A stretch of 62,643 nucleotides of DNA, filler included, from Deltaproteobacteria bacterium (GTDB lineage Bacteria; JAUYMQ01): assembly GCA_030698575.1 (NCBI GenBank). It is 11 parts of 11 records of this genome, joined end to end, with 100 filler letters (N's around TTAATTAATTAA, not from the genome) between each part and the next. Parts side by side here need not be neighbours in the genome. Positions count along the whole stretch, not along the records: positions 56,968 to 59,982 come from JAUYMQ010000522.1; 10 more parts are not named here. One strand, given 5' to 3'. The notes beneath the pieces were generated by a model. That model was given only the letters and a program-made list of their open reading frames with translations, searched no databases and was not told the DNA's origin. The translations under genes were made by a program, and so were the position numbers. Positions 56,868 to 60,082 of the stretch are shown here, in pieces; position 1 is the stretch's first letter, and the number at the start of each line of letters is the position of its first letter.

Positions 56868-56967
56868 NNNNNNNNNNNNNNNNNNNNNNNNNNNNNNNNN
56901 NNNNNNNNNNNTTAATTAATTAANNNNNNNNNNNNNNNNNNNNNNNNNNNNNNNNNNNNNNNNNNNN

Positions 56968-57243
56968 CTGAACGACTCCGGCGTCGAGCGCGATGAGCGA
57001 GTTGGCGATCTTGAAGGTCGAAGCTGGAATCCTCAGAGCGGCCGCGAACTCTGGATGCACCGCCTCGTACCGATTTCTTCGGAGATCGTAGACCAAAACG
57101 GTGCCACTCAAGCCAGTTGAATCGAGTGCGCCAGCCAACGACGGCAAGTTCTCGATCATCGGGTGCGCTTGTTGCGCCTCGACGCCGGTCGCGGCGATTA
57201 GCGGCAGGACGGCAAGAGCGCGAATGGCGAACACGCCGAGCAA
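56968..57243 (-). CDS. blaOXA: Class D (OXA-type) beta-lactamase-like protein, 3'-partial, integron cassette
   Basis: Signal peptide and PASTFKIANSLIAL (STFK active-site motif). Starts about 30 bp after an attC. Confidence 0.85.
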
Positions 57244-57273
57244 CCTATTCCTTCTCGTAATCTTGTGTCGGCG

Positions 57274-57367
57274 GCCTAACGGATCGCGCTTAAGCTGCGG
57301 CGCGCTGAAGAAGAAAGATTCATTTCCTTAATCTACGCGCGCCGTCAGCTTCAAGCGCTGGTTAGGC
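57274..57367 (-). mobile_element. attC site 1 (94 bp)
   Basis: GCCTAAC...GTTAGGC ends, L boxes GCGCTTAAGCTG/CAGCTTCAAGCGC, and extrahelical bases. Confidence 0.93.
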
Positions 57368-57379
57368 AGCGCCACCCGT

Positions 57380-57811
57380 CTACCGACGCTCGTAGAGTTC
57401 CACGATGTCTGGGCCGTCGGCCGGGTGGGGGTACCGCAGCGTGATCCTTGCGCCGACGAGTTCAGCCTGTGGGGTCCACACGTGGTCGCCCTCGCGCAGG
57501 GCGAGCTCCAGGACAGACCCCCGAAGACGGAAGCTCCCGGTGGCCGCGAACTCGCGAACCGTACCCTCGGCGGTCATGCGGTACCGCACGCGGCGTTCCG
57601 CCCGCCCCGCGGCCATCAGTGTGATCGTGCCGCTGACGGGCTCGTACACGCCCGGGAGAGGCACGGGACTGTCGTTGACGGTTCGGAGGGCGTAGGTGCC
57701 GGCCACGCGGCCCGGGCCCACCCCATCAGCGCAGGCACCGGCCCCCGCAGCGACGGCGAGGGCGCCAGCGATCAGGTGAAAGTGGCTCATGGTACGCATA
57801 GAATACCCCAT
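57380..57811 (-). CDS. Hypothetical lipoprotein-like cassette gene
   Basis: Fills the space between two attC sites. AGAC lipobox-like motif and 'AGTYALRTVN'. Confidence 0.8.
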   Translation of the reverse strand: MGYSMRTMSHFHLIAGALAVAAGAGACADGVGPGRVAGTYALRTVNDSPVPLPGVYEPVSGTITLMAAGRAERRVRYRMTAEGTVREFAATGSFRLRGSVLELALREGDHVWTPQAELVGARITLRYPHPADGPDIVELYERR

Positions 57812-57839
57812 CTTGAGGACTCAAGTCACTTCTGGCGCT

Positions 57840-57929
57840 GCCTAACGGATCGCGCTTAAGCTGCGGCGCGCTGAAGAAAGATTCATTCCCCAATCTACGC
57901 GCGCCGCCAGCTTCAAGCGCTTGTTAGGC
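57840..57929 (-). mobile_element. attC site 2 (90 bp)
   Basis: Near-identical to attC 1. Confidence 0.93.
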
Positions 57930-58232
57930 GGATGCGGCGCCACCACCACCGAACAGACCCTGGGACCGAGCCTTAAGCCGCGACAAGAAGTCCGGATTAT
58001 CGACGCCGCCAGGGAGTTCCGCGGCGACCTCTTCAACCACGCGCTTCATTTTCTGGAAGAGTGCTTGTCCTTCCGGACTCCTCGCCCTACGCTCCCCGTC
58101 GGCCAATGCCCACTCCACAAAATCCTGGCCCGTGAGCCCAGGAGGCAAAGGGGAGCCCCCCTCGCGCAGGGCAGCCTCCAACTCGGCACCCTTCTGACGA
58201 ACCAGGGCTTCGAGCTCAGGATCGCGTTCCAT
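57924..58232 (-). CDS. Hypothetical 102-aa cassette gene
   Basis: The TAA stop lies inside the R'' box, which is typical of cassettes. ATG is about 10 bp after the attC core. Confidence 0.8.
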   Translation of the reverse strand: MERDPELEALVRQKGAELEAALREGGSPLPPGLTGQDFVEWALADGERRARSPEGQALFQKMKRVVEEVAAELPGGVDNPDFLSRLKARSQGLFGGGGAASA

Positions 58233-58378
58233 GCCGCATTCCGCCTAACGGATCGCGCTTAGTTGGTATGAAGCGGTAGCTGGACCTCCACGGTCTCGTG
58301 GTGGCAAGCTGAGCCCCACACGCTTGTTCACGCGCTCACCGTCTTGCGACGGGGCGCACACCGGGAGGCCAGCTACCA

Positions 58379-59401
58379 ATGGATACGATAGGGCTCGATC
58401 TGCACAAACGCGAGAGTCAGCTGTGCGTGCTGACGGAGGCAGGGGAGATCGTGGAGCGCCGGATCGTCACCAGTCGCGAGCGGTTCACGGTGGTGCTCGG
58501 GGGCCGGCCCCCGGCGCGCATCCTGCTCGAGGCGTCGACCGAGAGCGAGTGGGTGGCCCGGCACCTGGAGACCCTCGGGCACGAGGTGATCATCGCGGAT
58601 CCCAACTTCGCGCCGATGTACGCCACGCGCCGCCGTGGGGTCAAGACGGACCGGCGCGACGCGCGCACGCTGGCCGAGGCCTGCCGGCTCGGGGCGTATC
58701 GGCGCGCCCATCGGGCGTCGGACGAGCAGCGGCATGTCCGCGCCGAGCTCGCGGTGCGGGACGCGCTGATCCGCACCCGCACGCGCACCGTCGCCCTGGC
58801 CAAAGCGCTGATCCGGCGCGACGGGCTGCGGCTGCCGAGCGGGGGGCCGGCCCACACGGAGGCCAAGCTGACGGCGCTGCCGTTGCCCCCCGCGCTGGCC
58901 GCCGAGCTCGCGCCGTTGCGGGCGCTGTGGGCGCCGGTGAACACCCAGATCGCCGCGGCCGACGCGCGGCTGGCGCACGTCGCCGCCGCCGATCCGGTGG
59001 TGGCGCAGCTGATGACGACGCCGGGCATCGGCCCGGTGACGGCCGTCGCGTTTGTGGCCACGCTAGACGTCGTGACGCGGTTCGCCAGCGCGCACCAGGT
59101 CGAGGCCTACCTCGGCCTGACGCCCCGCGAGTACAGCTCGGGCGAGCAGCAGCGGCGCGGGCGGATCAGCAAGACCGGGAATGCCCGCATGCGGTACCTG
59201 CTGGTCGAGGCAGCCTGGCGCGTGCTCCGCACCAAGGACCCGGCGGCCGCCGCGCTGCGGGCGTGGGCGGAAGGAATCGCGCAGCGCCGTGGGCGCTCGA
59301 TCGCGGCCGTCGCGCTCGCCCGGCGGTTGGCCGGCATCCTCTACGCGATGTGGCGCGACGGGAAGGACTACCGCGCGCCGCCGTCGGCCGCGGTGGCGTA
59401 G
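58379..59401 (+). CDS. IS110 family DEDD recombinase/transposase
   Basis: GLDLHK, LEAS, KTDRRDA, PGIG, EYSSG (catalytic Ser region) and ALARRLA. Confidence 0.95.
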   Translation: MDTIGLDLHKRESQLCVLTEAGEIVERRIVTSRERFTVVLGGRPPARILLEASTESEWVARHLETLGHEVIIADPNFAPMYATRRRGVKTDRRDARTLAEACRLGAYRRAHRASDEQRHVRAELAVRDALIRTRTRTVALAKALIRRDGLRLPSGGPAHTEAKLTALPLPPALAAELAPLRALWAPVNTQIAAADARLAHVAAADPVVAQLMTTPGIGPVTAVAFVATLDVVTRFASAHQVEAYLGLTPREYSSGEQQRRGRISKTGNARMRYLLVEAAWRVLRTKDPAAAALRAWAEGIAQRRGRSIAAVALARRLAGILYAMWRDGKDYRAPPSAAVA

Positions 59402-59676
59402 ACGTCAGCCCGCGTGCCCCAAGAGTGTGACCGACAAGAGCGGTGAGCGCGTCGCAGCTTATGACCGCCGCTGAGGTCGTCGCCTAGTGGGCGCCACCGC
59501 TCGTTCGGATCCCCCTTTGCGCCGACGAGCACCGCTCGTCACCCGAGAGCGCGTACAGAAGGCTGAGCGGCACCTCGAGGGCACCGGCTGCAGCGGGCCG
59601 CCCGCGGCCCGACAACAGAAGGACAGCAAAAACCCGACCGCGAGGCCGGGCTTGACGGGGTACGCCGCTTCACAGA
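59402..59676 (+). ncRNA. Candidate bridge RNA/seekRNA in the IS right end
   Basis: Stem-internal loop-stem at 59438-59502 carries CGCAGCTTA (attC target match). ACAGAAG (circle-junction match) occurs at 59555 and 59615. Confidence 0.72.
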
Positions 59677-59763
59677 AAGCTGCGGCGCGAACGTGAAGTG
59701 TTCACAAATAGAAGACTACAGCAGAAAGACGGCGCCGTCAGCTTCAGGCGCTTGTTAGGCAGC

Positions 59764-59982
59764 GCGGATTCATATAGTAAGTGCAACACGGTTTCTCAAA
59801 GAGAAAGGTGACCTGGCGGACGGTAGTCTTCAGTCTCCACCAAGAGAAGGAAGGCTGCCATGACGTACCGCCAGATCACCTTTGCGGAAAGATACACCCT
59901 GGGCCTGCTCCGCCAGAGCGGCCTCTCCCCCGCCGCCATCGCTCGCACGCTCGGCCGCCACCGCAGCACGATCAGTCGCGAG
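59764..59982 (+). mobile_element. IS30-family element, left end, partial
   Basis: AAGTGCAACA-containing end, followed by an HTH transposase ORF. Exact boundary is approximate. Confidence 0.75.
59860..59982 (+). CDS. IS30 family transposase N-terminus
   Basis: MTYRQITFAERYTL...IARTLGRHRSTISRE (HTH_38-like). Not in the ORF track. Confidence 0.85.
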
Positions 59983-60082
59983 NNNNNNNNNNNNNNNNNN
60001 NNNNNNNNNNNNNNNNNNNNNNNNNNTTAATTAATTAANNNNNNNNNNNNNNNNNNNNNNNNNNNNNNNNNNNNNNNNNNNN

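Follow-up and report, generated by a model that had tools for sequence, protein, structure and literature searches.

A candidate guide RNA in an IS1111-type insertion sequence lodged in an integron attC site

A 62,643-nucleotide (nt) stretch of DNA from a Deltaproteobacteria bacterium (assembly GCA_030698575.1), referred to as the window, includes a 3-kb contig (56969-59982) that is the locus of an insertion sequence (IS) and three integron attC sites. The insertion sequence, at 58262-59677, is an intact-looking element of the IS1111 type, and its DEDD/Ser recombinase is very probably guided by an RNA of ~190 nt encoded at 59403-59595 on the plus strand. The anatomy of the element can be read from filled and empty sites on the same contig. 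Among relatives the helices of the RNA covary, the guide strands vary in step with both the host flanks and the element's own ends, and the catalytic motifs of the recombinase are conserved. By analogy with ISEc11, ISKpn4 and IS621, the RNA would be made, bound by the protein and used to direct strand exchange. A preliminary description of this DNA had proposed an RNA-guided recombinase programmed to attC. This proposal is supported, both loop strands of the predicted guide following the flanks across 31 target classes, and the hairpin, loop, target and ACAGAAG strings that it listed all lie where it had placed them.

The predicted guide RNA and the strands that would read target and donor

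A scan of one genome per species returned 177 confirmed relatives, of which the best 80 (51-90% identical in the transposase) were used. These 80 come mostly from metagenome-assembled genomes (MAGs) of Gemmatimonadota, Rokubacteria/Methylomirabilota, Acidobacteriota and Myxococcota, and the closest are annotated as Gemmatimonadota. Most of the 80 carry the end repeat of the window element, and their flanks differ widely. A conserved downstream motif is present at 72 loci, which reduce to 69 distinct sequences; removal of L043 and L074, whose 5' parts are unaligned, leaves the 67 rows of the alignment (A1).

The RNA would be encoded just past the stop codon of the transposase gene, with a long helix (P1) closing a multiloop. 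Paired with each other, the two strands of P1 form duplexes with a mean of -29.3 kcal, compared with -19.7 kcal for mismatched partners, and none of 5000 permutations equals this. The multiloop carries a target-binding hairpin and an invariant GCGC/GCGC stem (P4), the latter enclosing a variable hairpin (P5). The target-binding hairpin reads GAGCGGTG-A-GCGC on its 5' side and GCGC-CACCGCTC on its 3' side, enclosing GTCGCAGCTTA (59451-59461) and TCGCCTAGTGG (59480-59490). Across the four inner helices 87.2% of alignment cells hold standard pairs, as opposed to 34-50% once the partners on the 3' side are displaced by 1-3 columns. Compensatory change on both sides is seen in 18 of the 28 pairs of these helices, and no shuffle in 500 reaches the observed values. 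P4 is 99.1% paired, and P5 shows compensatory change in five of six pairs (67 rows). The same helix cores are recovered independently by RNAalifold. P3 is closed by a U-G pair in 60 of the 67 rows and G-U variants occur in P2; the U-G pair points to the plus strand as the one acting as RNA. The fold put forward in the preliminary description is thus borne out by covariation in the 67 rows, but folding of the single sequence gives only z = -2.35 for the whole 275-nt region, and 4 of 200 shuffles fold equally well.

A covariance model (R1) was built from the 3' regions of relatives, as the preliminary description had suggested. It draws on L011-L080 (56 rows, transposases at most 71% identical), with the window and its ten closest relatives excluded. 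The model matches 59419-59584 on the plus strand over its full length, at 103.6 bits (E = 2.7e-25). The next-best match within the window has an E value of 0.47.

The target hairpin's two strands are predicted to read the two sides of the insertion point. The 5' strand would pair with the top strand of the core base and right flank (TAAGCTGCG), and the 3' strand with the left flank (CGCTTA in relatives), on its bottom strand, continuing into the first bases of the element. Within loop strand 1, CGCAGCTTA (59453-59461) is the reverse complement of TAAGCTGCG and matches the target at nine of nine positions. This 9-mer or its complement occurs three times in the window (the two empty attC sites and the loop), where 0.25 occurrences are expected. 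The guide tests used the 50 of 67 rows in which both ends are canonical and the flank extends for 10 nt or more, representing 31 target classes; L003, L023, L036, L070 and L071 were excluded for non-canonical ends, and the other missing rows lack flank. Loop strand 1 is perfectly complementary over at least 8 nt to the rebuilt empty target of its own locus in 26 of the 50, compared with 3.3% of non-own pairs. Right-flank positions 1-8 correspond, in antiparallel order, to its columns 54 to 47, with no more than 1 of 500 shuffles reaching the observed value at each.

Loop strand 2 and the left junction of the same locus are identical over at least 8 nt in 28 of 50 loci, again compared with 3.3% of non-own pairs. 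Agreement with left-flank positions -6 to -1 is found at columns 78-84 (30-49 of the 50 loci) and with left-end positions 1-2 at columns 85-86 (48 loci), with 0/500 shuffles for both sets. It is weaker at left-end position 3 (39/50 loci; 8/500 shuffles) and weaker again at position 4 (31/50; 19/500). This strand would therefore run across the junction into the element, in the manner of a handshake guide. The base that precedes the element and the one that follows the CAYAxA right-end motif (Y is C or T; x is G, A or C) are the same in 49 of 50 loci, which is the expectation from a single shared core base. The covariation between loop and insertion site that the preliminary description had predicted is thus found position by position. 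Host flanks are not inherited with the element, so the matches between guide and flank do not derive from common descent.

The donor would be read by two single strands of the multiloop that flank the invariant GCGC stem, one complementary to the left end and the other copying the right end and the core base. The first (D5) is placed between the target hairpin and the GCGC stem, and the second (D3) after the stem. Position counts were made over 55 rows with 500 shuffles as the control, and no shuffle reached any of the values that follow. D5 agrees with left-end position 6 at column 113 (50/55), position 5 at column 114 (51/55), position 4 at column 117 (51/55) and position 2 at column 119 (33/55). 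D3 agrees with right-end position -4 at column 175 (54/55), position -2 at column 177 (55/55) and the next base at column 179 (54/55), so that covariation is present at both variable right-end positions and at the base beyond them. Past the core base, D3 also covaries to some extent with positions 2 and 4 of the right flank and position 1 of the left end, which may reflect handshake or junction reading. The preliminary description had taken ACAGAAG, at 59555-59561 and 59615-59621, for the predicted circle junction. For the first copy this is essentially right, D3 covarying with the right end and the next base, but it does not hold for the second, which is intact in L001 and L002 and altered in the other alignment rows that cover it. 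The motif occurs four times in the window against 3.96 expected.

Table 1. Features of the element, its predicted guide RNA and the surrounding attC sites (window coordinates)
Feature	Position	Strand	Content or basis
IS1111-type insertion sequence, 1416 bp	58262-59677	+	filled attC3 compared with empty attC1 and attC2
Left end	58262-58276	+	7-nt extension GTTGGTA, then subterminal inverted repeat TGAAGCGG (58269-58276)
Transposase/recombinase gene, 340 aa	58379-59401	+	Pfam, NCBIfam and PDB matches
Predicted guide-RNA domain, whole, ~190 nt	59403-59595	+	closed by long helix P1 (59403-59434 with 59568-59595)
Predicted target-binding hairpin	59438-59502	+	P2, GCGC stem, P3
Hairpin stems	P2 59438-59445/59495-59502; GCGC 59447-59450/59491-59494; P3 59462-59466/59475-59479	+	covariation
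Loop strand 1	59451-59461	+	complementary to top strand of core base and right flank (TAAGCTGCG)
Loop strand 2	59480-59490	+	same-sense copy of last 6 nt of left flank and first 3-4 nt of element
Donor strand D5, multiloop	59503-59518	+	TCCCCC core (59510-59515) pairs with left-end positions 6, 5, 4 and 2
Invariant GCGC/GCGC stem P4 with variable hairpin P5 (59524-59540)	59519-59552	+	covariation
Donor strand D3	59553-59567	+	ACAGAA (59555-59560) copies last 5 nt of right end and shared core base
Right end	59665-59677	+	subterminal repeat CCGCTTCA (59665-59672), then extension CAGAA
attC1, empty	57274-57367	+	target GCGCTTA/AGCTGCG at 57286-57299
attC2, empty	57840-57929	+	target GCGCTTA/AGCTGCG at 57852-57865
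attC3, left piece	58243-58261	+	R box GCCTAAC and 12 nt
attC3, right piece	59678-59760	+	terminates in GTTAGGC

Several individual loci of the set, and the sequence on either side of the RNA, deserve brief description. L013 and L014 lie ~6.3 kb apart on one contig and share a reprogrammed guide (loop AAGCAGTTT, flank AAACTGCTT); the shared guide, together with a GTTAGG box 35 nt downstream of both, indicates one array invaded twice. L022 and L024 have an identical loop strand 1, which matches the right flank of L024 over 10 nt and that of L022 with three mismatches; L022 may be a natural off-target insertion. In L003 (84% identical) the right end is missing and the non-coding region (NCR) continues directly into the right arm of an attC (..CCAGCTTCATGCGCTGGTTAGGC), so that this is a truncated or rearranged element. 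In the window the remainder of the NCR (59596-59664) consists of variable GC-rich hairpins, with TTGAC (59651-59655) kept in close relatives. Upstream of the gene, roughly a dozen relatives have a CGCGCTC-type motif that precedes the start codon by 24-37 nt. The 5' untranslated region (58330-58341) is perfectly complementary over 12 nt to the 5' stem of the target hairpin (59441-59452), which was considered as a regulatory pairing and rejected. It shows no covariation, and over 62 loci 1314 of 5000 permutations are equally good.

The element, its transposase and known systems

The limits of the element carry a 1-nt ambiguity, 58261-59676 being equally possible. The preliminary description was right to place a non-coding region after the recombinase, but this region runs to 59677, the end of the insert. 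There is no target duplication, as is seen by comparing the empty GCGCTTAAGCTGCG with both filled junctions. The subterminal inverted repeat (58269-58276 with 59665-59672) is a perfect 8 bp; it is 9-14 bp in relatives, and the window repeat is shorter than the 11-13 bp given as usual for IS1111 elements in PMC11187229. The terminal extensions measure 7 nt on the left and 5 nt on the right, and counting the ambiguous base on the left makes these 8 and 4; the same paper describes IS1111 extensions of 7 bp and 3 bp. Non-coding sequence amounts to 276 nt downstream of the gene (59402-59677), compared with 117 nt upstream (58262-58378).

The transposase matches both domains of the family, PF01548 (DEDD_Tnp_IS110, E = 1.4e-14) and PF02371 (Transposase_20, E = 7.9e-27), as well as the NCBIfam model NF033542, 'IS110 family RNA-guided transposase' (252.3 bits, cutoff 140). 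Its nearest solved structures in PDB are ISCro4 (E = 1.7e-17) and IS621 (E = 5.6e-14). Residues D7, E51, D91, D94 and S254-G255 align with the catalytic motifs of ISCro4; in IS621 the catalytic residues are D11, E60, D102, D105 and S241 (PMC11208158). The sequence GLTPREYSSG at residues 246-255 fits the GL-P----S(T)G motif described as a mark of IS1111 (PMC11187229), and the length of 340 aa is within 330-350. No PLSDB protein is more than 38.1% identical to this transposase, and identity to IS5075 and IS4321 is ~27%. Judged by its recombinase domains, subterminal repeats, long downstream NCR and lack of a target duplication, the element is classed as a member of the IS1111 type.

IS1111 members are described as making a seekRNA from the downstream NCR, which co-purifies with the transposase, on which movement depends, and in which the match to the top strand lies 5' of the match to the bottom strand (PMC11187229). 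The window guide shows this order, with the complement of the right flank on the 5' side and the copy of the left flank on the 3' side. Bridge RNAs have been predicted in 93% of IS1111 elements, with the donor-binding bases in a multi-loop (PMC11208160). Targeting of attC is also on record. Siddiquee et al. (2024, PMC11187229) showed experimentally that ISKpn4 and ISPst6 are directed by a seekRNA to one end of attC sites, and ISPa25 is predicted to behave likewise. The targets of ISKpn4 and ISPst6 are given in a 2026 review (PMC13604230, Table 1) as ...TTGAA/CGAATTGTTAG and ...TTGAA/CGCATTGTTAG, cut (slash) 6 nt before GTTAG, and ISPa21 and ISPst6 are reported to lie antisense to the cassettes, close to the 5' end of attC (PMC3001079).

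The element in the window resembles ISKpn4, ISPst6 and ISPa25, as described in PMC11187229, in its long downstream NCR, in a guide hairpin with the top-strand match 5' and the bottom-strand match 3', and in an attC target. Like the IS1111-attC group of ISPst6, ISPa21 and ISKpn4 (PMC3001079), it lies antisense to the cassettes. However, the published sites of that group read AA/CG, 6 nt before GTTAG near the 5' end of attC, and the window element sits 12 nt after GCCTAAC, in the 3' arm, at a different target. With no PLSDB transposase above 38.1% identity, it would be a distant lineage. With ISEc11 and ISPa11 it shares donor-binding bases placed in a multi-loop, not in a simple internal loop (PMC11208160). 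The long-form RNA of these elements is given as 145-172 nt (PMC11187229), compared with ~190 nt here, and the targets differ, being a linear site for ISEc11, repetitive extragenic palindromic (REP) sequences for ISPa11 and attC for the window element. The likeness to IS621 and ISCro4 consists of aligned DEDD and Ser motifs, two guide pairs (target and donor) and a guide that crosses the junction, like the handshake guides of PMC11208158. In contrast, IS621 has its RNA upstream of the gene, two consecutive internal loops, the reverse guide order and a core dinucleotide CT, whereas in the window element the RNA is downstream, the donor strands lie in the multiloop and one shared base is evident (49/50 loci).

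RNA-guided targeting of attC by IS1111 elements is already known, and the general principle was established earlier; the present finding confirms and extends it. What is new here is the lineage and the position within attC, and neither this lineage nor insertion into the 3' arm of attC is reported in the literature that was searched. RNA-guided invasion of integron sites would then not be confined to the clinical ISPst6/ISKpn4 group, but would also reach chromosomal cassette arrays of uncultured environmental bacteria. The more than 60 relatives, with ~31 targets, amount to a natural experiment that exposes the RNA positions reading the target, the ends and the core base, in a type for which structural and mechanistic work is far scarcer than for IS621. 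If the reading is correct, the rule set would comprise at least 8 nt of right target, 6 nt of left target with 2-4 nt of handshake, one core base, and donor strands in a multiloop. Such rules could serve the reprogramming of a compact system from GC-rich bacteria of soil, sediment and groundwater.

Among the best 80 of the 177 relatives, attC-like flanks are seen only in the clade at least 65% identical to the window element, plus L080, and sister lineages with transposases 52-64% identical occupy unrelated sites. This distribution suggests that the specificity for attC arose inside the clade; acquisition of attC targeting independently of the known IS1111-attC group has a slightly less than even chance. 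L080 itself, 51% identical and found in a MAG of Hyphomicrobiales, is inserted 11 nt beyond ATCTAAC, and GTTGGGC follows 79 nt downstream. Its guide and the flanks of its own locus agree over 10 nt on each side. This element may represent a second, independent convergence on attC with a different guide.

Competing explanations and the condition of this copy

A number of observations weigh against a programmed RNA guide. A match of at least 9 nt to either strand of the 24-nt target arises in 425 of 5000 dinucleotide shuffles of the 275-nt region, so the 9-mer match reported in the preliminary description, although exact, proves nothing alone. Five of the 31 class representatives (L037, L044, L054, L057 and L075) match their own right flank over no more than 4 nt of loop 1, and L050 has a loop 1 identical to that of L046, yet only 2 nt match its own flank. 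In the window copy, substitutions at 59484 and 59489 leave two mismatches between loop strand 2 and its own left junction, and D5 mismatches the copy's own left-end position 6 (T). A scan of 58200-59800 for sigma-70 promoters and intrinsic terminators returned none. Homology to a curated or studied RNA was not found either in an Rfam scan of 57000-59990 (E up to 10), which gave noise only, or with R1 on five plasmid-borne relatives (IS5075, IS5708, a Rhizobium element 38% identical and two others), where the best E value was 0.1.

One alternative is that the 3' region does no more than terminate transcription, stabilize the mRNA or bind protein as a DNA end, and that its match to attC is coincidental. 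Of the shuffles, 8.5% reach the 9-mer, ACAGAAG is no commoner than chance predicts and the fold of the whole region has a modest z. Single features of this kind are within chance, and the signal is decisive only through comparison with relatives. There, the loop strands follow the host flanks over 31 target classes, flanks that are not co-inherited, and the helices covary; nor was a terminator-like site found in the scanned interval. Coincidence is already strongly disfavoured and we consider it very improbable. That the guide sequences function as DNA, whether as a folded single strand or as end homology, we likewise regard as highly improbable. Such an explanation would be in keeping with the lack of a predicted promoter in the scan above and of direct evidence of transcription from this analysis. 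It does not account for the U-G pair that closes P3 in 60 of 67 rows or for the G-U variants in P2, which would be A-C on the other strand, and the family relatives described in PMC11187229 and PMC11208160 use RNA. Contigs from RNA libraries over the region point, weakly, in the same direction.

These contigs come from two metatranscriptome libraries of different studies and cover 59396-59529 (10 differences) and 59416-59688 (22 differences); further RNA-library contigs lie over 58245-58419. They derive from relatives and DNA carry-over is possible, so that they are a weak hint of transcription. In RNA runs X15, X17 and X18 contigs are absent over most of the transposase gene, an absence that carries no weight. 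A search by eye for a junction promoter across the joint of right and left ends gave no convincing -35/-10 pair.

A further possibility, which does not exclude RNA guidance, is that the family works as described and this resident copy is weakened or dead, its left-target and donor strands having drifted. The preliminary description had seen a resemblance with two mismatches between the second loop strand and the left flank. The mismatches are real, but the relation is not a loose one: loop strand 2 is CGCCTAGTGG in the window and CGCTTAGTTG in L001-L004, where it is an exact copy of the left junction, and 59484 and 59489 are the two substituted positions. A soil-metagenome contig from another study (run X2) covers 58243-59689 within attC with 19 differences (98.7% identical). 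Like the relatives it has T at 59489, and at 59484 it is the same as the window. The loop-2 substitutions and the D5 mismatch suggest that the copy may be weakened, and neither of the two remaining attC targets on the contig is occupied. Against this, the open reading frame (ORF) is full length with its catalytic motifs present, the RNA scores 103.6 bits over the full model, and the right-target strand matches at nine of nine positions. We consider it unlikely, though by no means negligibly so, that this copy is weakened or dead.

The cassette array and its attC sites

The contig that holds the element is bounded in the window by joints at 56868-56967 and 59983-60082, which are N runs around a TTAATTAATTAA spacer, and adjacency across them is meaningless. 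A 19-mer, GCCTAACGGATCGCGCTTA, is identical at 57274, 57840 and 58243, once in each attC site, and a GTTAGGC-type box closes each of the three. Sequence comparison confirms the statement of the preliminary description that empty attC1 and attC2 and filled attC3 share this contig. The sites have the properties of integron attC: GCCTAAC...GTTAGGC boxes, an imperfect palindrome, extrahelical bases and a site after each cassette ORF. On folding, attC2 gives an imperfect hairpin with two single-base bulges, both in the high-coordinate arm; its energy is -31.8 kcal/mol (z = -5.62), which none of 200 shuffles equals.

The predicted programmed target would fall within a single arm of attC, at a distance of 12 nt from the R box, and the transposase runs antisense to the cassettes. 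The insertion point lies in the 3' (R'-side) arm, reading away from GCCTAAC. In the mirror arm, on the other strand, the sequence is GCGCTT-G-AAGCTG-G-CG, with an extrahelical base exactly at the insertion point. This base would break guide pairing, which would explain the choice of arm and orientation. Insertion splits the R' box from the remaining attC hairpin and should freeze the neighbouring cassettes.

Minus-strand ORFs start soon after one attC and stop at or beside the next. The cassettes are on the minus strand and the transposase gene on the plus strand, and the gene of the element is therefore antisense to them. The first ORF after attC1 (56969-57243, minus strand), which is cut by the contig end, encodes 91 N-terminal residues of a protein of the class D (OXA-like) beta-lactamase type, in which a signal-like start and the motif STFK are present. 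It matches NCBIfam class D models with E values down to 5e-13 and PDB 6nhs at E = 4e-6, and it looks like a gene cassette.

At least seven DNA runs contain half or more of the sampled words of 58100-59800; one may be the source sample, and the rest are metagenomes from soil, sediment and caves. Apart from X2, they are no evidence on habitat. Just past attC3, a second transposase-like ORF begins at 59860 on the plus strand and is cut by the contig end at 59982. It matches Pfam HTH_38 (E = 1.1e-13) and, weakly, an NCBIfam IS630 model, and is probably the reason that the assembly broke there.

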